In this document: in pieces, positions 3,606 through 27,238 of the stretch
Numbering within the stretch: the first letter of the stretch is position 1
Layout of the letters: each line of letters begins with the position of its first letter
IMG/VR virus record: IMGVR_UViG_3300032782_000004
DNA length: 27,854 nucleotides
Reading direction: 5' to 3' (one strand)
Source: a virus
Taxonomy: Duplodnaviria > Heunggongvirae > Uroviricota > Caudoviricetes
Program-made: the position numbers and the translations under genes
The notes under the pieces: model-generated
The model's input: only the letters and a program-made list of their open reading frames with translations
What the model was told of the DNA's origin: nothing
Database searches by the model: none

Positions 3606-3614
3606 TTGGTCAGG

Positions 3615-5294
3615 ATGACGCGATACGCAGCTCACGTGAACCGACGCGCGACCTCTCAGCAAGAGAGCGCTCGTGCCGATCAGGTACAAAACAACGCGGG
3701 CGGTTTCGTGTTCGCGCTCGACAAGTGGAAACGCCTGGATCGCTTTCTTATTCTTGGGGCCGATGGTGGCACTTACTACGTCAGCGAGCGCGAGTTGACG
3801 ATCGACAACGCGAACGTCGTATTGGAATGCCTCGCCGAAGACGGTCTCCGGACGGTTCGGCGCATCGTAGAAATCAGCGACACCGGCCGCGCGCCGCGGA
3901 ACGACCCGGCAATTTTCGCGCTTGCGATCGCTGCGGGTACCGGCATCGGCGTCGGCGGCTACGGCGGCACCGTCGCCGCGGCAACGCGGAAAGCAGCGCT
4001 CGAGGCGTTGCCGAAGGTTTGCCGTATCGGAACCCACTTGTTCCATTTCGCCAATGACGTCGAAGGCTTTCGGGGATGGGGCCCGGCGTTGCGCAAAGCA
4101 ATCGCAGCCTGGTACGCACAACGCGAGCCGCGCGCGCTCGCTTACGATCTCGTGAAGTACCAGTCACGCGATGGCTGGGGGCACAAGGATTTGATCAAGC
4201 TGTCGCATCCTCAAGCGCCGACGGCGGCGCACAAAGCGGCGTTGGCATGGTCTGCACGCGGCGGTACCGAAAAGATGGGCGTTTCAACGCGGAAGAAGGG
4301 CGGCGGCGAACGCGGTACGATCGCCAACCGCGATGCTCTTCCGGCGATTATCGAAGCTTTCGTCGAAATTCACGCCGATGGCGTCGACGTTCGGCGAGCT
4401 TGCGAGCTGATTCGCGCTCATCGGCTGCCACACGAATGCGTCCCGAACGAGCTCAAAAATCGACCGGAGATCTGGGACGCGCTCTCCGAGCACATGGGGC
4501 TCACGGCGCTCATGCGCAATCTCAACAAGATGACGGCGGTCGGGCTCCTGAAACCGCTCTCCGACAAAACGCATGCGATTTGCTCGAAGCTCATTGATCC
4601 CAACGCCCTGTTCAAGGCGCGCGTACACCCGCTCGCGGTGCTTATCGCCCTCAAGACCTATTCGGCGGGTCAAGGCGCTCTTGGCAAGTTGACGTGGATT
4701 CCGACCTCGGAGATCGTCGACGCGCTCGATTCGGCGTTTTACCTCGCATTCGAGGCGATCGAACCGACAAACAAGCGGCACCTGCTTGGCGTCGATTGCT
4801 CTGGCAGTATGACGGCTCCGATCGCGCGCTTGAACCTTACCGCTCGAGAAGGCGCGGCAGCGATGGCGATGGCGACGGTGCGGGCCGAAAAGCGTACACA
4901 TGTGATGGGTTTTTGCGGCCAGTTCGTGTCGCTTCCGATCACGGCAAAGCAGCGCCTCGACGATGTCGTTCGAACCGTAGGGCAGGCGAGCTTCGGCCAA
5001 ACCGATTGTGCGTTGCCGATGATTTACGCGGCGGAGCACAAGCTCGAAGTCGATTGCTTCTCCGTTTACACCGACAACGAGACGTGGTTCGGCAGCGTCC
5101 ATCCGTTTCAAGCTCTTCGGGCGTACCGCGAGCGAATGGGTATCCCGGCAAAGCTCGTGGTCGTTGGAATGGCATCGACTGGTTTCACGATCGCCGATCC
5201 GACCGATGAGGGCATGCTCGACGTAGTAGGATTCGATTCCGCTGCGCCCGCCGTCATCGCCGATTTCGCCGCCGAGCGGGAGGTATGCGGATAA
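3615..5294 (+). CDS. rsr: Ro60/Rsr TROVE-vWA RNA-binding protein
   Basis: NNAGGFVF, RFLILGADGGTYY, KYQSRDGWGHKDLIKLSHP, ALMRNLNKMT, MIDAS DCSGS, YTDNETW, DVVGFDS: characteristic Ro60 blocks along the whole length. Confidence 0.96.
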   Translation: MTRYAAHVNRRATSQQESARADQVQNNAGGFVFALDKWKRLDRFLILGADGGTYYVSERELTIDNANVVLECLAEDGLRTVRRIVEISDTGRAPRNDPAIFALAIAAGTGIGVGGYGGTVAAATRKAALEALPKVCRIGTHLFHFANDVEGFRGWGPALRKAIAAWYAQREPRALAYDLVKYQSRDGWGHKDLIKLSHPQAPTAAHKAALAWSARGGTEKMGVSTRKKGGGERGTIANRDALPAIIEAFVEIHADGVDVRRACELIRAHRLPHECVPNELKNRPEIWDALSEHMGLTALMRNLNKMTAVGLLKPLSDKTHAICSKLIDPNALFKARVHPLAVLIALKTYSAGQGALGKLTWIPTSEIVDALDSAFYLAFEAIEPTNKRHLLGVDCSGSMTAPIARLNLTAREGAAAMAMATVRAEKRTHVMGFCGQFVSLPITAKQRLDDVVRTVGQASFGQTDCALPMIYAAEHKLEVDCFSVYTDNETWFGSVHPFQALRAYRERMGIPAKLVVVGMASTGFTIADPTDEGMLDVVGFDSAAPAVIADFAAEREVCG

Positions 5295-5304
5295 ACAGAT
5301 TCGT

Positions 5305-5372
5305 GCTCGGAGCCGTTGAGGTTGGGTTACCCTTTGGCGGATATCTCCCAACTTCGTTTCTCCGCCCCGAGC
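5305..5372 (+). ncRNA. Y-RNA-like stem-loop, copy 1
   Basis: Outer stem GCTCGG/CCGAGC, inner 9-bp stem GAGGTTGGG/CCCAACTTC, pyrimidine-rich internal loop; begins 10 nt after the Ro60 stop. Confidence 0.7.
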
Positions 5373-5382
5373 CTGTATTGAG

Positions 5383-5459
5383 AAGGTCCGAGCCGTTGCG
5401 GTTGGGTTATCATGCAACGATTCCCCCAGTCGCGCTTCTCCGCCCGGGCCTTATTTTTT
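5383..5459 (+). ncRNA. Y-RNA-like stem-loop, copy 2, followed by a U tract
   Basis: Outer stem AAGGTCCG/CGGGCCTT, inner 9-bp stem GCGGTTGGG/CCCAGTCGC, contains GGTCCGA, ends TTATTTTTT. Lies 80 nt after copy 1. Confidence 0.72.
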
Positions 5460-5469
5460 CTGAGACCAG

Positions 5470-5643
5470 ATGGTGAAGAAAGAGATTTCACGTGGCGACG
5501 TTCTTCGGCTGGCGGCCGAAGCACAGCTCGATCCGAGGACGGTCAAGCGCGCCATCGAACGCGGCATCGAAAGCCTGCAAGCGGCCGTGGACAAAGATCG
5601 CCTTCGCGCCGCCGCGGCCAAGTTGAGGATCAAAGTCGAATGA
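5470..5643 (+). CDS. Small HTH-like DNA-binding protein (57 aa)
   Basis: MVKKEISRGDVLRLAAEAQLDPRTVKRAIERG...; LAAEAQLDPRTVKR fits a helix-turn-helix pattern. Not in the ORF track. Confidence 0.7.
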   Translation: MVKKEISRGDVLRLAAEAQLDPRTVKRAIERGIESLQAAVDKDRLRAAAAKLRIKVE

Positions 5644-5649
5644 ACTTCT

Positions 5650-5860
5650 CTGGAGGTAACTCCAGTTTGGCGTACCCGCGGAGCGCGGGTTCGAAACACT
5701 CTTCGAAAGAAGAGGACAACGTCCGAAGGAAGCGGACGGCACGGGCGATCAAGCGCAAGCTCGAACGTCACGGCCCCGCATTGCCTCGGAAACCGGCCTT
5801 GCGCCGGAGCCCTCGTCTCAAGACGAGGCAATCGATCGTCATCATCGTTTCGCTTTCTAC
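5650..5860 (+). ncRNA. Putative structured ncRNA ending in an anti-repeat (tracr-like)
   Basis: Perfect hairpins at 5650-5665 (GTAA loop), 5674-5690, 5699-5714 (GAAA loop), 5720-5738, 5793-5807 and 5811-5828. No credible CDS. Confidence 0.5.
5826..5860 (-). repeat. Inverted degenerate copy (anti-repeat) of the array repeat
   Basis: Minus strand GTAGAAAGCGAAACGATGATGACGATCGATTGCCT matches the 35-nt repeat at 26/35 positions with no gaps. Confidence 0.8.
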
Positions 5861-5999
5861 GAGAGCGCGAGCGCCGAGGTGCCGCGAGACATGGTTTCGA
5901 GCAATTTCGCTCGGATACGGCGACGTGGAGCCGATGATCTACGAACCGCTCGCAGACCGGCTTGCAAGTACGCGATTCGTCTACGTCGTTGGCAGGCCG

Positions 6000-6257
6000 G
6001 TCGAAAGCGATTCGACGACGACAATCGGTTGTCAGTGGAGCCGGATCAGGATCGCCGGACGGACGGTGGCGCGTCGAAAGCGATTCGACGACGACAATCG
6101 GTTGTCAAACGGACCTAGCGCAGAGTAGCACAGACTACGTGACGTGTCGAAAGCGGTTCGACGATGACAATCGGTCAGTCAGAAGCGTCTCGCGATCTCG
6201 CGAGAGTTTCGAACACATCGTGTCGAAAGCGATTCGGTGATAGCGATTGATTTGTCA
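6000..6257. CRISPR. CRISPR-like mini-array: 4 repeats, 3 unique spacers, no cas gene in window
   Basis: GTCGAAAGCGATTCGACGACGACAATCGGTTGTCA is identical at 6000-6034 and 6073-6107, variant at 6146-6181 and degenerate at 6222-6257. Spacers are 38, 38 and 40 nt. The repeats are certain; CRISPR identity is inferred. Confidence 0.65.
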
Positions 6258-6382
6258 GCGCGTCCTGCGCAGGCGATAATCTCTGTTACGTACCCCAAGT
6301 AACGCCAAAACTCGCGCGGCGGAGCATCAAAGCGCATCCGCTGCGCGGCCTCGAGCATTCGCGCACGCTGAACGTCGGTCAT
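6179..6382 (-). CDS. Small hypothetical protein (67 aa) running antisense into the array
   Basis: ATGA-coupled to the upstream - strand gene; its C-terminal third overlaps repeat 4 and spacer 3. Confidence 0.4.
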   Translation of the reverse strand: MTDVQRARMLEAAQRMRFDAPPREFWRYLGYVTEIIACAGRADKSIAITESLSTRCVRNSREIARRF

Positions 6383-7527
6383 GCGAACGTGATCGGCTGC
6401 GGCGTGACCGGCACCGCCAGCGCCAGTTGAAGCGTCTTGGTGAACAGCCCGCTCAAGAACGTTGGTGCCGGTATAGTCGACGGATCGAGCGGTGGATTCG
6501 GCGGGGGCGCCGCGACCTCGAGCGCGACGAATTCCCCGAGTGGTCCGCTAAGCTCGTCGTTGCTCGGCGTTCCGAACGTCTCGCTCAAGTTTTGTTGCGC
6601 AACCGCAAAGTAACTCTGCGGCAAATACACGAGCGGGCGGTCGATGAGCAATTGCGCTTCGTCGGTGAGCGCGACGAGAAAATCGAGTGCGGTCGCGTTC
6701 GCTTGTACCATCGGCAACGGCTCCGACAGCTCGGCGAGCGTGATTTGCCCTGCGCTGTTTCCGAAAACGCCGGTGCCGGTGAGAATGAAATTGTCGATGA
6801 CGGCGATGTCGATGCTGCCCACCGCGAGCGGCACCGCAGCCGGACGTTTGCCGGTGAGTCCGACCGTTGCCGTGAACGGGCCCGCGCCCGTCGAATCGTG
6901 ATAGATGAGCTCGACGGAGCGCGCGCCGTTTCCGGCCGGAATAGCCGGCGTCGTCGCGACCCCGTTCGTATCGAACGGCGAGGTCGAATAGACCGCCACG
7001 TTCGTCACCGGCGTCGCTACCGTCTTGAATGCGGTCGTGTTGGATGTGATCCCGGAGTACGCGGCGGTGAGTACGATCTGCGTCGCGCCGAGCACCGTTG
7101 CCACTTCGTAGAAAACGCCAGGCTGCGAAAGGAATTGGATCAGATCACCCGATTGCAAATTCGGAATTTGTGTGGCCGTCGTCGCAACGCCGAAGAGGCC
7201 GTTGGCGACGAAAAACGATCCAGGCAGCGTCACTGCTTTGCGCAGTTCGTAGGGAAGTGTCGGCGGCGTCGATGTATCGGGTTGGCAGGGAAACGGTGGA
7301 GGCGCTCCGGCGCCGGCCATGTTCAAGGTGAGCATCCGCGTAACGGTTGTTCCGCTCGGTGTCGTCACGTCGCTGTCGACGTTGAGCCCAAAAAATTGGC
7401 CGAGAACCGGATCAGTGCCCACATTGTCGTAGAGCGGCACTGCGGAAAGCGCCGCAGCAGCTTGCGTTGGCCCATAAGGGCTATTCGTCACGTCGACGGT
7501 CCAGGCGAGCACGATTTGGCTGGGCAT
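6379..7527 (-). CDS. Probable virion structural protein (beta-rich, Thr/Pro-rich)
   Basis: Long ORF, likely start MPSQIV at 7527; composition resembles phage structural proteins. No family recognised. Confidence 0.7.
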   Translation of the reverse strand: MPSQIVLAWTVDVTNSPYGPTQAAAALSAVPLYDNVGTDPVLGQFFGLNVDSDVTTPSGTTVTRMLTLNMAGAGAPPPFPCQPDTSTPPTLPYELRKAVTLPGSFFVANGLFGVATTATQIPNLQSGDLIQFLSQPGVFYEVATVLGATQIVLTAAYSGITSNTTAFKTVATPVTNVAVYSTSPFDTNGVATTPAIPAGNGARSVELIYHDSTGAGPFTATVGLTGKRPAAVPLAVGSIDIAVIDNFILTGTGVFGNSAGQITLAELSEPLPMVQANATALDFLVALTDEAQLLIDRPLVYLPQSYFAVAQQNLSETFGTPSNDELSGPLGEFVALEVAAPPPNPPLDPSTIPAPTFLSGLFTKTLQLALAVPVTPQPITFA

Positions 7528-7721: not shown

Positions 7722-8804
7722 GTGTCTGATAACCAGATAACCAAACACGCCGAGCACGCGCTCGCCAAAGCGCAAGAAGATCTCGTAGCGCTGGATAAGC
7801 GTGCGGAAGAAGCCGCCTATTCGGCAATCCCGGCGAACACTCGGCGGGCCTACGAGTTCGACTTGGCCTGTTTCGCGTCGTGGTGCGTCAGACACGGTGT
7901 CTCTCCGGCACCGGCCGAACCGCGAGTCGTGCGCGCCTACTTGCAGGAGCTCGCCGAGCGCGGGCGGGCCGCCGAAGACGTCCAAAGCGGCAAAGCTCGG
8001 GGCCCGATGGGGTACAGCGCGCTCATGCGCGCACTCGCGGCAATCTGCCGTAGCAATCAGAAAGCCGGGTACCCAAGTATTTGGAAAGACACGCTTATCA
8101 GATCGACACGGGAGACGCTGGCGATCACTAAAGGGAAAGCGCCGAAGCGGCAGAAGCGCGCGCTCAGCGGAACCGGCGAAGCACTTATCTTCCGCGTGTG
8201 CGACTTGATAAGCGATGATGTTCGCGGCATTAGAGACCGCGCGATGATTCTCGTCGGTTGGGCAGGCGGCGGTCGACGGCGGAGCGAAATCGCCGCCGCC
8301 CGGCGCGAGCACTTCGAAGACATCGAAGGCGGGATCAAATGGATGATCCCCCGCAGCAAGACCGACCAGGCCGGAGAGGGCTTCGTGGTGCTGTTATCTC
8401 CAGGAAAAGACGAGCGATACTGCCCGGTCCACGCACTGCGCCGCTGGCTCGCCGTTTCGAAGATCGAGCGTGGGCCGGTGTTCCGCGGCGTCGACATGGT
8501 CACCGGCGAAATCATGGCGGCAGCGATCGCCCCCGAAGGGGTAGCGCGACGCGTGCAGCACTACGTGAAATTGCTCGGCCTCGACCCTGCGGACTTTGGC
8601 GGCCATTCGTTGCGTAGCGGGTTCGTCACTACGGCGCACAAGCTCGGTCGAAAGCTCCCCGACATCATGGAATCGACTGGACATCGGACGTCGGTTCAGG
8701 TGCTCGGGTACATCCGCCGCGAAGGCCTCGTCGAAGAGTCCGCCGGCCGCGGGCTCCTGGACGAAGCGTTGTCACGTCAAAAGGGAAGCAATGTCGAAAA
8801 ATAG
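7722..8804 (+). CDS. Tyrosine recombinase/integrase (Cre/XerD-like)
   Basis: N-terminal core-binding NTRRAY..D...F..WC; catalytic RDRAMIL...RRSE, PRSKTDQ, GHSLRSG, TGH....VLGY. Confidence 0.95.
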   Translation: MSDNQITKHAEHALAKAQEDLVALDKRAEEAAYSAIPANTRRAYEFDLACFASWCVRHGVSPAPAEPRVVRAYLQELAERGRAAEDVQSGKARGPMGYSALMRALAAICRSNQKAGYPSIWKDTLIRSTRETLAITKGKAPKRQKRALSGTGEALIFRVCDLISDDVRGIRDRAMILVGWAGGGRRRSEIAAARREHFEDIEGGIKWMIPRSKTDQAGEGFVVLLSPGKDERYCPVHALRRWLAVSKIERGPVFRGVDMVTGEIMAAAIAPEGVARRVQHYVKLLGLDPADFGGHSLRSGFVTTAHKLGRKLPDIMESTGHRTSVQVLGYIRREGLVEESAGRGLLDEALSRQKGSNVEK

Positions 8805-21813: not shown

Positions 21814-24800
21814 TTACAGAGGCACCAATCGACTGTCGACGATGCTCGGATCGAAGAAAGCGAGGTGTGCAGAGGCGTCGTTTACACCGAAGCTAGCAAC
21901 TAGCTTTTTGCCATCTCGCGCAAGACCCGCGCAAAATTCAATACCTACACGGGAAAAGTAGAACAAGTCGCTGACAGCAGTAATCCGGAAGTCTCCAGTG
22001 AGCGCGACGAAGCGATGCAAATATACGCGCTCCGGCCGCCAAGCGACTTCGTGCACGAGGCATAACCACCCGTCTCCGTGTCGGATAAGTTGAGAGCCAC
22101 CCCGGAAATCGACGAGCCGAGCGGGTGCCGTGTGTCGTGCGATCTCGACGGTCCGCTCGCCGACATCGGATGAACCACCGCCGGGCGAATAGCATCGAAT
22201 GGCGATGGTCGGATCGCACCAGTACAAGAAGGATCCCGGACGGCCGGCGATCGGCATCCAGTTCTTCTGCGTCTTGTGCCCCTCGTAGTCGCGGATCGGC
22301 ATGATCGCATCGACGTGTCTCTTCTCGTCGAGCCGGCCAATGATCATCTCGCAGCGGCCATCGACGTTGTCGGAGAGGTCGCGTACCGTCGCGGACACGA
22401 AGTACGAATCGGCGCTCGACCACAAGCGACAGTCCTCGAGCCCCTCGACGGGGAACTTGCTGCGCGGCGTGCCGGTCACGTCTTCGATCAGCGTTGATCG
22501 AATCGGCCTCCAGCTTTCGTCCATTTCGACGATGTAGTTGCGCGTTCGGATGATCCCGCTGCCGTCGATTGTCGGGTACTCACCGTCAACGACGACGTAG
22601 TTGACCGTCCGAACGAGCGCCAACCGCGCCTCCTTCTCGACGAAGATCGAGGGGTTCATCGGCGCCCAACCGTCGCCCGGTTTCCAGTCGATCTCTCGAA
22701 TCTCGGCCTCGAAGAGCGTAGCCGCCGACTTCGCGTAGAACGTAAAGTTTCGGCGCGCTTCGTTTCGGATGAAATCGTCGCGATGGAGCGTGAGCTCGGT
22801 GCACGCGCGATATCCCGCTTCGCGCCGCTCCGGGATTTTACTGTGGTACCCGGTAATGGCGAGCTCGCGCTTGGCCCCGAAGTCGTAGACGTTCAATTCC
22901 ATGAAGAGCATCTCGTCTGCCGGCTTGGTTCGAATGAACGCCTCGGCGATCAAAGCGGCCGGGTCGTTCTTCCCTTTTTCGCGGTAGTACGTGGCGAGCA
23001 AATTGAGTGCTTCTGCGCGCCAAGGACGATAGTTATACGCTTCGAAGCACGCTTCGATGAAGGCCGGCTCGTCGCCGAGATCTTTCAAGCAGATCGCGAT
23101 CCCGTAGTACGAGTACCAGATCTCCTCGTCCCACCCGCCACGTTCGATGCGCTTCTTGTACCAGTAGATCGCGCGGTGCGGTCGATCGGACTCGCGATAC
23201 GAGTTCCCTAGATAGAACATGTACCGCTCGTTGTTCGGTTCTTCTTGCAAGCCATCGAGAAGTAATCGGATGTCCCGCTCCGTCTTGTCCGACTTGCTCC
23301 CGCCATCGTTGCGGTCGTCGATGGTCAAACTGGTGATCGGTGCGTATTCGACGCCTTCGACAGAGAGGTGTTCATGGGTGACTCCGACGTAGCAAGCGGG
23401 AACGTCGCGACGCAGGAGGCGCGTGTTCGGGTTCTTGAGCGTTCCGGCGTATTGGATGATCTTATATGCCGGAGCGACGAGCGCGCTTTTGTCGAGCGTC
23501 CCTTGAAGCACCATGTCGGCGTCGATGAGCAACGCGTAATCCCAATCGGGGACAGAGCGCGCGACGCGGAGGCCCTCGTTTCGGCCGTGAGCAAAGTTTT
23601 TGAACTCGATCCGTTCGAGCTTCCCCGGTAGCGGATACTGTTCGAAAAACTTCGTGATCAGCTCGGCCGTGTTGTCGTCCGATCGGCTGTCGATCGAAAT
23701 GGCCCAAGCGTCGATGAACGGGAGCGCGGACGTCAAACAGCGTTCGATAATCTTGCTCTCGTTTCGAACATTCATCACGAGACAGACACGCGGGATCTCG
23801 GGGAGACGTTTCGGCCGCTCGATCGCTTTTTCGAAGTCGATGATGCTGTCATCGTGGTCGGCTTTGTACCAGTCGAAGCGGAAGCCGGCGCGTTCCATTC
23901 GAGCCCAGTTGTTGACCTCCCAGGTCAACGAAACGGGATCGGCATGGAGCGTAGCGTTCAATGCGACGAGATCGCGTATTCGGTTCCTATCGACGAGCAA
24001 AAATCCTCCGCAGAACCGCCAATGCACGACATCGTCTGTCAATGGCGGCGCTTCCGCCGCTGCGCCCCAACATCCTGGAGCGAGCACGCATCCCGCCGGA
24101 GGGTGTAGCGCTCGCAAGCGTTTCCGAAAAGACTCCTCGTCGCGGACGATCTTCATGATACCGAAGTCGATCCAAGCGAAATGCGTCGACACGTTATCGA
24201 GCGAGCGGGCAAGGTCAAGCAGCTCTATCTTCGAATTTTGGAGCAATAGGAAATCGCGCGTGTCCTTCTCGAGTGTGCGATGCGCCGGAAGCGTCAGTTC
24301 GCGTCCTTCGGCCCATTTGAATGGCCATAGATCTCCGAGCCGCATCGGGACGATCTGGACATTCTCGCGCCACCAAGCTCGATCCATGAGCCGTTCATCT
24401 AGAAACACCAAGATCGGAGCGCCGCATTTAGCAAGCCGTTCGAATTGTCGGAACTGCTCGTCCTCGTCGATGCGCCGGTCTTCCAATCGAAAAAATCCTG
24501 TGACGAGCGTTACTTTCGTCGGTCGCGCTACGATCCAATCATGAACGGCCTTTGGATTGCCTTGAAGAATCGTTTTCGTCATTTCCGGCGCTACAGCAGC
24601 GGTCAGCCCGACTTTTCTAGCTCGATCGAGCACATCGTCGCGTTTGAACCATGAGACGCCCGGGTACTGCCATTCTCGAAAATCGGCGCCATGTCGAGCG
24701 CTCCCCGGTGAACCGAATTCATTGCCTTCAGCGAGCCGTATCGAAGCGGCGAGCACGCCTTCTGGTGCGAGCTGTTCTCTAGCCGCGACAAAAAACTCGT

Positions 24801-25197
24801 CGAGCTGACTGTCCGAGGCGTGGCTCAAGATCGAGTGCGAAATGATGAAATCGAACTTCCAACCCAATCCGGTGCGAAAGTCCGCGCGGGGAGAAAATTG
24901 CGGTCGTTTCGCCACGACAGTCGGCGCGGCCTCGGATGCCCTCAACGTCGACTGGATGAGCCACGAGTTCGGATCGATGCCGAAGTAGTTGCCGGCATCG
25001 AGGTATTGCATGATCGGAAAGCCGGCGACCAGAGCGCCGCATCCTATTTCGAGCACGCGATGATGCGGCTTGCAGCCGAGATCTTTTAAGATCTCGAGCT
25101 GCGCTAGACCTTCTTCAGGGAGCGTGCAAACGTAGCTGACGGCATCGGCGTTCTCGGGGCTAAACGGGAGCGGCTTCACGGTCATTATCGACCCCAT
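21814..25197 (-). CDS. Multidomain glycosylation protein: SAM methyltransferase + HtrL/WlaTC-like GT + GT2 + TPR + beta-propeller glycosidase-like domain
   Basis: VLEIGCG; VTLVTGFF...HFAWIDFG; CLVMNVRNE...IDSRSDDNT...LLIDAD; TPR-like YMFYLGNSY/AIYWYKKR; MNPSI, GLEDCRL, QKNWMP, EFCAGL. Confidence 0.85.
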   Translation of the reverse strand: MGSIMTVKPLPFSPENADAVSYVCTLPEEGLAQLEILKDLGCKPHHRVLEIGCGALVAGFPIMQYLDAGNYFGIDPNSWLIQSTLRASEAAPTVVAKRPQFSPRADFRTGLGWKFDFIISHSILSHASDSQLDEFFVAAREQLAPEGVLAASIRLAEGNEFGSPGSARHGADFREWQYPGVSWFKRDDVLDRARKVGLTAAVAPEMTKTILQGNPKAVHDWIVARPTKVTLVTGFFRLEDRRIDEDEQFRQFERLAKCGAPILVFLDERLMDRAWWRENVQIVPMRLGDLWPFKWAEGRELTLPAHRTLEKDTRDFLLLQNSKIELLDLARSLDNVSTHFAWIDFGIMKIVRDEESFRKRLRALHPPAGCVLAPGCWGAAAEAPPLTDDVVHWRFCGGFLLVDRNRIRDLVALNATLHADPVSLTWEVNNWARMERAGFRFDWYKADHDDSIIDFEKAIERPKRLPEIPRVCLVMNVRNESKIIERCLTSALPFIDAWAISIDSRSDDNTAELITKFFEQYPLPGKLERIEFKNFAHGRNEGLRVARSVPDWDYALLIDADMVLQGTLDKSALVAPAYKIIQYAGTLKNPNTRLLRRDVPACYVGVTHEHLSVEGVEYAPITSLTIDDRNDGGSKSDKTERDIRLLLDGLQEEPNNERYMFYLGNSYRESDRPHRAIYWYKKRIERGGWDEEIWYSYYGIAICLKDLGDEPAFIEACFEAYNYRPWRAEALNLLATYYREKGKNDPAALIAEAFIRTKPADEMLFMELNVYDFGAKRELAITGYHSKIPERREAGYRACTELTLHRDDFIRNEARRNFTFYAKSAATLFEAEIREIDWKPGDGWAPMNPSIFVEKEARLALVRTVNYVVVDGEYPTIDGSGIIRTRNYIVEMDESWRPIRSTLIEDVTGTPRSKFPVEGLEDCRLWSSADSYFVSATVRDLSDNVDGRCEMIIGRLDEKRHVDAIMPIRDYEGHKTQKNWMPIAGRPGSFLYWCDPTIAIRCYSPGGGSSDVGERTVEIARHTAPARLVDFRGGSQLIRHGDGWLCLVHEVAWRPERVYLHRFVALTGDFRITAVSDLFYFSRVGIEFCAGLARDGKKLVASFGVNDASAHLAFFDPSIVDSRLVPL

Positions 25198-25198
25198 G

Positions 25199-26434
25199 CT
25201 ACCCTAATTCTTTTTCGAGCGACATAGTCGATTTGCGTGTCAGGATCGTTAGCCCGTTGTTGTTGCTCAGTCGATTTTCTAGGCGCCAATCCGAATGCGC
25301 GTCTAGGAACTCTACGATCGCCGGCCATAAACCGAGCCCGCTCTCGGACTCGTCCCGACTGCCGTAAGTCGTTGTATCGTGCATGAGGATGTGCTTACGT
25401 ACTTTCGACTCATGTACAAATAACTCGCATCGGAGCTGAGCGTAGTTGTGTATCGTGTCGATGAACAATAGATCTGTTTTTTCGATGCTAGCCGCTAAGG
25501 CGCTTTCGACGCAGAATCGAAAATCGATTTTCGCCGCCGCGGCGATCTCGCTTAACTCCCGCATATCCAAATGGCGGATATCGTAACTCCGCATCGACTT
25601 CGGACGCCCGCGCAGTAACCCCCATGTAGATCTGCCCGCGCCGAATTCCGTGACGTGCGCGCACTTGCTCGCGTACATCGACAGAACCGAGATATGCTCG
25701 TTAATGTCGGACGGCTCGATCTCACACTGATGATACTGCCTTTCGATTTTGCCCAGTGCAGTGCATATCTTGTTGAGCCCCGAATCCCACCGAATGCGAT
25801 CGCTTTCTGTTATCGCGTCGAACTCGTGCAAACTAGATCCGCTGACGGCCCCCTTATGCCACACCCCCATGCCGTGCACAGTCCGCTGCGCGAATCCGGC
25901 CCATCTTAGTAGCCAGTAGATCCAATCGTCGCCGCAGTGGATAAGAAGCTCGGAAGGTATAGGGAATGCGATCGACACGGCCTCCCTGGACATCGCGAAG
26001 AAGGCCCCGTGTACATAGTCTGTAGCGGTCGAGTCCGCGGACGGCTCTAGTGGCGCGTAGATCTCGTTTTCGTTGAGTAGTCTGGCGATCCAATATTCTC
26101 TTTGTTCCGCGCTATCGCAGCGCATCAGTAACGACTTCGTCCAATTCGGCGATGCGATCAGATCGGCGTTCGCTAGAACTAGTACGTCGTGTTCTGAGGC
26201 CAGAAAGATTTCCGCCAACTGATTCCATGCCGGATTCACGTAGACGTTCACGTCGTTGCGCACCACAGAGATCGAAGCGCCCATCTCGCGTAAAACCGAT
26301 TTAACATCGGCTGTCGCGCCGTTTTCGATCGCAACCACATGCGTCTCCGGGCTTAAGAAAGATCGAATTGCGCTCAACAGCAATTCACGCGGTTCAGCGA
26401 AGCAAGGCACCCCCACCATAATTCTGGCAGTCAT
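25199..26434 (-). CDS. GT2-like glycosyltransferase fused to a class I SAM methyltransferase
   Basis: MTARIMVGVPCF...IENGA...NPAWN...NAD...GDDW, then SDINEH...EFGAGRST...DLLFIDTIHNY...MHDT. ATG 26434 has an ATGA overlap with an alternative-frame stop. Confidence 0.75.
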   Translation of the reverse strand: MTARIMVGVPCFAEPRELLLSAIRSFLSPETHVVAIENGATADVKSVLREMGASISVVRNDVNVYVNPAWNQLAEIFLASEHDVLVLANADLIASPNWTKSLLMRCDSAEQREYWIARLLNENEIYAPLEPSADSTATDYVHGAFFAMSREAVSIAFPIPSELLIHCGDDWIYWLLRWAGFAQRTVHGMGVWHKGAVSGSSLHEFDAITESDRIRWDSGLNKICTALGKIERQYHQCEIEPSDINEHISVLSMYASKCAHVTEFGAGRSTWGLLRGRPKSMRSYDIRHLDMRELSEIAAAAKIDFRFCVESALAASIEKTDLLFIDTIHNYAQLRCELFVHESKVRKHILMHDTTTYGSRDESESGLGLWPAIVEFLDAHSDWRLENRLSNNNGLTILTRKSTMSLEKELG

Positions 26435-27238
26435 TTTGCCGCCTCCATAGCTCTGTGTGCGGTGTTCAAGAACCTGTCCTCTGACATGTTTGTGGGGCAA
26501 GCCTCTGCACGCTTCAAGAGCAGCGCGTACACGTCGGGATCGAGCGCGCACTTCTCGGTCGCATGTACATCGAACACTCGCTTTCGGTCGGAGCGACCAG
26601 CCGTCTGGGATCCGCCCGTCAAACGGCTTAGAGTAGGTTTCCGAGTCAGGCATACCGCCCCACTTCTGCACGAAATAAAGCCGAGATTGTTCGATCGCGA
26701 CGGCCATCCAGTCGGGGCGCCCGAGAGCGTTGAAAGTCGTCCAACAGCCGGCATGTTGCACCGGCTCGGAGCAATTCCAAGTGCCGCTCACACCGGCGCG
26801 CACGAGACGGACAGCGTAGTCCGAGTCTTCGTAGTACCCGGGCCAAAAGTTTTCGTCGTAGAACCCGACTGTTTGCGTGCACTCCGGCGTCTGCCCGAAA
26901 AGGCACCAGCCGTTTCCAACAATTCGATGAGTCTCGAGATCACGTGTCATTTCCTCGAAGGTGCGCTCGCCGAGGACGACGTCGTCGTTCGCGATGACAA
27001 TCGGTTCGCCGAGCTCGAGCATCTTGTTCCAAGACGCTGCAACGCCGATATTCTCATCGGGGATGACGGCGTGGATCTTCGAGCGCCACGGACGATTTGG
27101 AAGCGATGACAGATCGCCGCCGTTGAACACGATCACGTAGCCGCTCGGCGCCAACGATCCGCGTTCGGCCGATTCGATCAGACGGACGAGCCCCTCGAAA
27201 TTGACGAGAACCGGAACGCCGAGCTTCACCGGTCGCAA
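26431..27238 (-). CDS. GT2-family glycosyltransferase (as sequenced, reads through in frame into the next gene)
   Basis: NIGVAASWN, ANDDV, VGFYDENFWPGYYEDSDY. The ORF track gives one 679-aa ORF, 25199-27238. Confidence 0.75.

Follow-up and report, generated by a model that had tools for sequence, protein, structure and literature searches.

An effector-less tracr-plus-array cassette in a wetland phage, probably served in trans by the phage's own TnpB-like effector

In the 27,854-nt stretch of Caudoviricetes DNA analysed here (the window), four copies of a repeat follow one another at 6000-6257, and the question is which system they belong to and which protein could use them. The preliminary description took them for an orphan, cas-less CRISPR mini-array of an unrecognised repeat family. 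When we recomputed the array, every repeat and spacer of that description lay exactly where it had first been placed, and the decay was the same: repeat 2 is an exact copy of repeat 1, repeat 3 carries two substitutions and one extra nucleotide, and repeat 4 is degenerate. The array consists of the following features.

6000-6034, + strand: CRISPR repeat 1, leader-proximal
6035-6072, + strand: spacer 1, 38 nt, present in the window's array version only
6073-6107, + strand: CRISPR repeat 2, same sequence as repeat 1
6108-6145, + strand: spacer 2, 38 nt, present in the window's array version only
6146-6181, + strand: CRISPR repeat 3, substitutions at 6156 and 6164, altered 3' end with one additional base
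6182-6221, + strand: spacer 3, 40 nt, the trailer-end spacer, common to sibling contigs L012 and L013, containing a palindrome
6222-6257, + strand: repeat 4, the degenerate terminal repeat, kept in all three array versions

Repeat 4 retains ~60% identity to repeat 1, the repeat periods are 73, 73 and 76 nt, and the three spacers are unrelated in sequence to one another. A 15-nt core of the repeat, with up to two mismatches allowed, occurred 4 times against 0.43 expected from shuffles, and each repeat has the potential to form a hairpin. The array site is a gap of ~730 nt from a 56-aa ORF (5473-5643, +) to a 382-aa gene (6379-7527, -). In the ORFs crossing the repeats, the GC content by codon position was flat (0.59/0.59/0.62, vs ~0.64/0.49/0.72 in the real genes here), indicating that the array stretch is non-coding.

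We then compared the array among sibling strains. The siblings were wetland metagenome phage contigs found via the neighbouring 382-aa protein, and one further contig was recovered by scanning metagenomes for a 22-nt core of the repeat. Three versions of the array, holding 3, 9 and 12 spacers, were found in otherwise ~99% identical strains. Contig L011 was identical to the window across 5600-6420. An 89.9-kb contig (L012/L014), whose copy of the neighbouring gene is 99.4% identical to that of the window, has ten repeats and nine spacers at the array site, and the trailer spacer is the only one that L012 has in common with the window; spacers 4-9 of L012 are also present in L013. Contig L015 has thirteen repeats and twelve spacers, and one spacer in common with L012 at a different rank. 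The flanks of the array are ~99% identical between the strains and almost every spacer is different. The sibling arrays retain 9-12 perfect repeats, and repeat 3 of L012 carries one of the window's two substitutions only. Logan contigs from four wetland runs broke at repeat 1 and yielded no new array version.

Since the spacers are replaced wholesale between conserved flanks and the repeats decay at one end, the repeats are a true, fast-changing adaptive CRISPR array. Across the array versions the repeats measure 35-36 nt, within the 23-47 nt usual for CRISPR repeats, and the spacers measure 37-41 nt. The CRISPR reading of the preliminary description is therefore upheld: the spacers turn over among siblings, and the flanks and the terminal repeat stay constant. 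Spacers conserved among relatives, which it had named as the sign of a fixed structural RNA or operator array, were absent, the siblings carrying 3, 9 or 12 mostly different ones.

Two details of the sibling arrays are worth recording. An identical 37-nt spacer is the fifth of L012 (L012:11617-11653) and the second of L015 (L015:1256-1292) with all neighbouring spacers different, which suggests either that arrays have recombined or that one favoured protospacer was acquired more than once. L015 is without the trailer spacer common to the window and L012, and it carries an unrelated 184-nt insertion (L015:370-553, - strand of the locus) between its last intact repeat and the conserved degenerate terminal repeat.

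Such a place might also be occupied by iterons or operators bound by a protein, by a partition site or by a structured RNA array linked to Ro60 and Y RNA, as the array lies in a non-coding gap of ~730 nt between convergent genes, with a Ro60 gene, itself accompanied by Y-RNA-like elements, 700 nt upstream, and a hairpin is possible in each repeat. However, the sequence between the repeats is replaced wholesale in siblings and the copy number of the repeats ranges from 4 to 13, variation that is incompatible with iterons, with operators and with a fixed array of structural RNAs. In addition, ten Ro60-encoding phages had neither the repeat nor the scaffold described below, and the RNA upstream of the array has homologues among the effector-linked scaffolds of phages without Ro60. 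We consider a non-CRISPR identity extremely improbable.

The region upstream of the array holds an inverted copy of the repeat (5826-5860, 26 of 35 positions matching), which the preliminary description had missed; 500 shuffled repeats reached at most 22 matches in the same kilobase. The copy lies inside a longer RNA gene, the parts of which are listed below; together with the array we call it module B.

5648-5824, + strand: 5' domain of a tracr/omega-like scaffold RNA, with several hairpins, compensatory changes, and profile and blastn homology
5825-5860, + strand: anti-repeat, at a position homologous to that of the anti-repeat of scaffold A (scaffold position 177 in B vs 170 in A)
5861-5999, + strand: 3' domain of the scaffold, or leader, from the anti-repeat to repeat 1, defined by the alignment of five modules and a consensus fold

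Scaffold B starts 5 nt past the stop codon of the 56-aa ORF. By blastn, window 5675-5968 is 70% identical over 300 nt (E = 9e-21) to a scaffold in the tail of an effector gene of a sibling, and the similarity begins just 3' of the last RuvC motif of the effector. This effector gene, its scaffold (A) and its array form module A, and further effector-linked modules (C, D and E) come from other phages. An nhmmer profile was built from scaffolds A, C, D and E with B left out (model length 344). It matched the window at 5648-5986 (+) with E = 1.5e-47 over model positions 3-329 of 344, and it found no match in the ten Ro60-encoding phages (L001-L010).

The structure of the scaffold was assessed by profile HMM and by pair counting in Python. 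The five scaffolds align with long invariant blocks, every one of which is present in module B; those conserved in all five modules within 5861-5999 are GATACGGC, GCCGAYGA and GAACCGCTCGCA. When the consensus fold was predicted from A, C, D and E alone (104 pairs), B formed 90 of these family pairs (87%), vs 33-45 when the 3' partners were slid by 1-3 columns, and 26 of the 90 are compensatory in B, both sides differing from the commonest pair. The five-sequence consensus has 118 pairs, 58 of them with compensatory change, and includes a long-range helix between the anti-repeat and repeat 1. Six SNPs distinguish the strains in scaffold B, none of which breaks a predicted pair. The divergence between strains was 1.7% in scaffold B vs 0.6% in the neighbouring gene, a value that does not argue for strong constraint. 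Window 5648-5999 (+) is thus a full-length, structure-preserving homologue of the clade's effector-linked scaffolds of ~350 nt. The array lies directly 3' of this scaffold with its cognate anti-repeat, and the orphan, cas-less reading of the preliminary description is not supported.

General searches gave little for the same region. Rfam at gathering and permissive thresholds returned nothing relevant over 5200-6500, a tRNA search found none, a simple sigma-70 and terminator scan upstream of the scaffold found nothing, blastn of the whole region had no match in GenBank phages, and no RNA run was found to contain the stretch. A 22-nt core of the scaffold was absent from IMG/VR, and its single match in GTDB, within a Mycobacterium coding region with dissimilar flanks, was rejected as a chance match.

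The effector of module A (P0129) is a 625-aa protein encoded at sibling locus L019:3398-5275 (-), with HTH_OrfB_IS605 and Cas12f1-like_TNB domains. Its sequence matches in the PDB were ISDra2 TnpB (E = 2.5e-18), 9j09 (E = 2.5e-6) and LaTranC (E = 2.5e-3). With regard to a Cas12n grouping, ISDra2 TnpB ranks far above 9j09 in this search, a ranking by sequence alone. The effector gene is followed by array A, with 36-nt repeats and mostly 35-nt spacers, and scaffold A overlaps its 3' tail. The same 625-aa effector gene lies ~27 kb from the module B site on a 91.4-kb contig, which also carries proteins identical to the window's neighbours and the same gap of 736 nt at the array site; the size of this gap fits the 3-spacer array version. 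No effector is encoded beside the scaffold and array of module B, and the sole effector of the family that was seen is ~27 kb off with a scaffold and array of its own. A tblastn search of the window with the coding part of the effector found no remnant.

The RuvC triad of P0129 is non-canonical in the alignment, with Glu in motif I (GVEVGV), the Glu of motif II lost and the Asp of motif III kept. Glu replaces Asp in RuvC-I in the whole P0129 sub-clade, while more distant members retain Asp. In RuvC-II, LREP of 18 close family members corresponds to RMRPAG in P0129, with the Glu lost and one residue inserted, and this loss is found in P0129 alone among its relatives. Because motifs I and II depart from the canonical residues, we propose that the phage effector may bind or block DNA, which appears more likely than cutting it. 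Binding rather than cutting has been described for Cas12c, Cas12m and TldR proteins (PMC13565253; 10.1101/2023.11.30.569447).

We found 25 relatives of the effector at 40-57% identity, mostly on phage-sized contigs; peptide patterns retrieved none from IMG/VR, and GenBank phages offered at best a single match of 27% identity. Three relative loci were read (L024, L025 and L026), and they share one layout, in which an effector gene is followed by a scaffold overlapping its tail and by an array of 35-36-nt repeats. Judged from these similarities, module B appears to belong to a small, phage-borne clade of TnpB-derived, Cas12-like (TranC / type V-U-like) systems.

The repeats and anti-repeats of the five modules were compared next. 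The B anti-repeat (5825-5860) pairs with its own repeat through 26 Watson-Crick and 2 G-U pairs out of 36, ungapped. In the 21-pair helix of the family, the number of pairs between own anti-repeat and own repeat is 18 for A, 21 for C, 18 for D, 20 for E and 17 for B, and each of the five scaffolds pairs best with its own repeat (17-21 of 21 on the diagonal). In the crossed combinations, 9 of 21 positions fit for the A anti-repeat with the B repeat, and 15 of 21 for the B anti-repeat with the A repeat. The anti-repeat and repeat of module B have co-varied. All five module repeats are 35-36 nt long with YGTCAG at the 3' end, and most spacers begin with G; in module B the first spacer base is G in 19 of 24 and A in 5 of 24. 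The boundary between repeat and spacer is uncertain by one base; given this excess of G and the GTCAG ends of the related repeats, the true repeat length is probably 36 nt.

The repeat for which the preliminary description knew no family is therefore a member of the family of this phage effector clade (35-36 nt, ending in YGTCAG). Within the family, the B repeat is 47% identical to that of A and 64% to that of C, and B and the effector-linked module are only ~50% identical in their repeat/anti-repeat pairs. The spacers of array B are 37-41 nt long vs mostly 35 nt in array A, a gap that could reflect different handling. The exact repeat was absent from IMG/VR, and a 23-nt repeat core had no exact match in 185,579 species genomes (GTDB), so that exact matching found no host CRISPR repeat with this core. 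Altogether, the array, its orientation and its decay stood as first described, and the orphan status and the unrecognised repeat family did not.

Where did module B come from? Scaffold B is 61% identical to A of the same phage and 56-66% identical to the scaffolds of other phages, the closest being C, and so it did not arise by recent duplication within the genome. The effector locus of L024 is flanked in its entirety by DNA polymerase/methyltransferase genes on one side and by a homologue of the 382-aa gene plus an integrase on the other; module B occupies this neighbourhood in the window. Since B is as far from A as from the modules of other phages, and L024 has a whole locus in the same neighbourhood, module B would most likely be the remainder of a second, C-like system that lost its protein-coding part in a deletion ending exactly where the RNA gene begins.

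Based on these observations, we suggest, with a probability of roughly 0.6, that 5648-6257 (+) is an effector-less tracr-plus-array cassette, probably a relic of a second system, which would be served in trans by the phage's own effector. Two guide cassettes would then probably supply one phage protein. The + strand is expected by homology to be the RNA strand, with the type V/TnpB polarity in which the repeat handle stands 5' of the spacer; this polarity agrees with a leader on the left. The left-hand leader, + strand sense and trailer-end decay of the preliminary description are supported as well. In the proposed mechanism, the + strand would be transcribed, and the 56-aa ORF may be co-transcribed with scaffold B. 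The scaffold would pair with the repeats, acting in cis on repeat 1 and in trans on the rest, and the duplex would be processed into guides made of a repeat handle followed by a spacer. These module B guides would be loaded in trans on the 625-aa effector. We regard trans use as the most economical reading, because no other effector of the family was seen, the scaffold blocks that face the protein are conserved, renewal of the array continues and none of the six SNPs breaks a pair. The compatibility of module B with the phage effector is assumed from the conserved scaffold blocks, with the two scaffolds ~61% identical and the A anti-repeat fitting the B repeat at only 9 of 21 positions. Because of this scaffold distance and the different spacer lengths, two other readings remain live.

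In the first of these, module B is a decaying, non-functional leftover of a second TnpB/Cas12-like system, which lost its effector and whose RNAs are used by no protein. Such a fate would fit the lack of an effector gene within the window, the distance of B from module A, which is no smaller than that from the modules of other phages, the failure of the A anti-repeat to fit the B repeat, and the short array of the window with two of its four repeats damaged; the scaffold also diverges faster between strains than the neighbouring gene. A dead remnant is hard to reconcile with spacers that differ almost completely among ~99% identical strains and with siblings that hold 9-12 perfect repeats. Moreover, 87% of the family base pairs, all conserved blocks and the complementarity of the anti-repeat are intact, and no pair is broken by a strain SNP. 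We judge a wholly unused relic rather unlikely.

In the second, the phage contributes only scaffold and array, and the host or a co-resident element encodes the effector and the adaptation proteins, as is assumed for virus-borne mini-arrays. The effector is indeed not adjacent, adaptation genes are absent from the parts of the phage that were read, spacer turnover needs an integrase from somewhere, and virus-borne arrays without cas genes have been documented (PMC6858448, PMC7099407). On the other hand, the scaffold family was found only beside phage-borne effectors (L019, L024, L025 and L026), neither the repeat core nor the scaffold core had a true match in 185,579 species genomes, and the same phage encodes an effector of exactly the matching family. 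Dependence on a host effector is in our opinion unlikely.

The near-complete difference in spacers among ~99% identical strains requires recent adaptation activity on the array. No cas1/cas2 or other adaptation gene was found in the ~55 kb of phage read. The only gene seen there that could conceivably touch spacer processing (L016:3697-4857, +, ~9 kb before the window start) encodes a 386-aa PD-(D/E)XK protein (PF12705) of a superfamily that includes Cas4, and it is more likely a recombination nuclease. As for targets, the spacers gave no significant match in GenBank phages or in plasmids and no match in ~200 kb of local phage loci, and three spacers had none in IMG/VR; targets in competitors or host genes, as suggested in the preliminary description, are hypothetical. 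A bolder proposal is a two-cassette system, in which the cassettes are separable from the effector gene, a single nuclease-impaired TnpB-like protein works with two mutually non-pairing tracr:repeat sets from distant sites, and both arrays gain spacers rapidly without cas1/cas2. We hold this to be improbable as a whole; if true, it would imply foreign integrases acting on non-host repeats, or an as yet undescribed, Cas1-independent spacer addition in TnpB-derived systems.

We compared module B with several known systems. In TranC / type V-U systems, the omega RNA is split into tracrRNA and crRNA (PMC10691335; PMC13565253, citing Jin et al. 2025). They resemble the present family in the TnpB-sized RuvC effector, the long omega-like scaffold running over and past the 3' end of the effector gene, the anti-repeat that pairs with a 35-36-nt repeat, and the short downstream array without cas1/cas2; their structurally known neighbour is Cas12n (V-U4). 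In contrast to them, module B is without an effector gene, ~27 kb from the sole one seen, and has its own diverged repeat/anti-repeat, and RuvC motifs I and II of the phage effector are non-canonical. The cas-less mini-arrays of Sulfolobales viruses and others (PMC6858448, PMC7099407) are likewise short, lack adjacent cas genes and have variable spacers. The repeats of those arrays are of host type, the class 1 machinery is the host's, a tracr-like RNA is lacking, and the spacers, usually 1-2, are directed against related viruses (PMC6858448, PMC7099407), whereas the module B repeat matches no cellular genome searched, and module B has its own 350-nt scaffold, up to 12 spacers in siblings and a matching effector family in the phage itself.

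The cassette also resembles some carriers of single guides. PATE-like IS200/IS605 derivatives are non-autonomous carriers of omega RNA. Like them and like the guide RNAs of TldR (10.1101/2023.11.30.569447), module B is a TnpB-family guide RNA gene with no adjoining tnpB, its protein would come from elsewhere, and a nuclease-impaired TnpB relative would be used for binding. Theirs is one fixed guide set by the transposon end, while here there is an adaptive array with split tracr and crRNA. The alternative tracrRNAs of Cas9 loci (10.1101/2020.09.02.279885) similarly show that one effector can be served by multiple tracr-type RNAs, but those lie inside the cas9 locus and serve one repeat type, whereas module B sits at a remote site with its own diverged repeat family. 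Surveys of TnpB and Cas12 diversity restricted their search for arrays to a distance of 10 kb from the effector gene (PMC10691335), and thus remote effector-less cassettes would be missed or filed as orphan arrays. Here, an apparently orphan phage array could be assigned to an effector family via its scaffold RNA and not via its repeat. It would be a natural case in which the RNA part derived from an omega RNA survives apart from its protein gene and still renews its spacers. The locus would also offer a test bed for how much scaffold divergence a TnpB-like effector tolerates, for the partition of guides by non-cross-pairing sets and for Cas1-less spacer acquisition.

Several genes around module B are described here for completeness. 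The Ro60/Rsr gene (3606-5294, +) encodes TROVE and vWA domains (E = 1e-38 to 1e-68). It is followed at 5295-5459 by two units of ~80 nt with a common GCCGTTGNGGTTGGGTTA motif and then a U-tract terminator; these units are plausible Y-RNA-like genes and had no Rfam match. Ro60 is missing from the relatives that bear the scaffold, and the scaffold from phages that encode Ro60; this is therefore adjacency only, and the position of Ro60 next to module B looks coincidental. The 56-aa ORF has gene-like GC by codon position (0.70/0.44/0.68) and a faint HTH_28 match (E = 0.05). On the other side of the array, a 67-aa ORF (6179-6382, -) starts in an ATGA overlap with the stop codon of the 382-aa gene and spans the degenerate terminal repeat; its extent is doubtful, as its C-terminal half cannot be conserved in L015.

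The 382-aa protein (P0001, 6379-7527, -) is a widely conserved phage protein with more than 265 relatives at 53-66% identity, many on contigs of 85-130 kb, and in the window phage it is ~110 residues shorter than in most relatives. It was considered as an effector and rejected, as it had no Pfam, PHROG or PDB sequence match, and its all-beta model (pLDDT 77) had no Foldseek match at E <= 1e-3. The next gene (7722-8804, +) encodes a 360-aa protein with a sub-threshold tyrosine-recombinase match (Pfam E = 4e-4; PHROG integrase E = 2e-11), and its counterpart in L024 has a clear Phage_integrase match. Farther along, two genes (21814-25197, - and 25199-27238, -) encode large methyltransferase plus family-2 glycosyltransferase plus TPR proteins and adjoin collagen-repeat tail-fibre-like genes, which suggests phage-encoded glycan modification.
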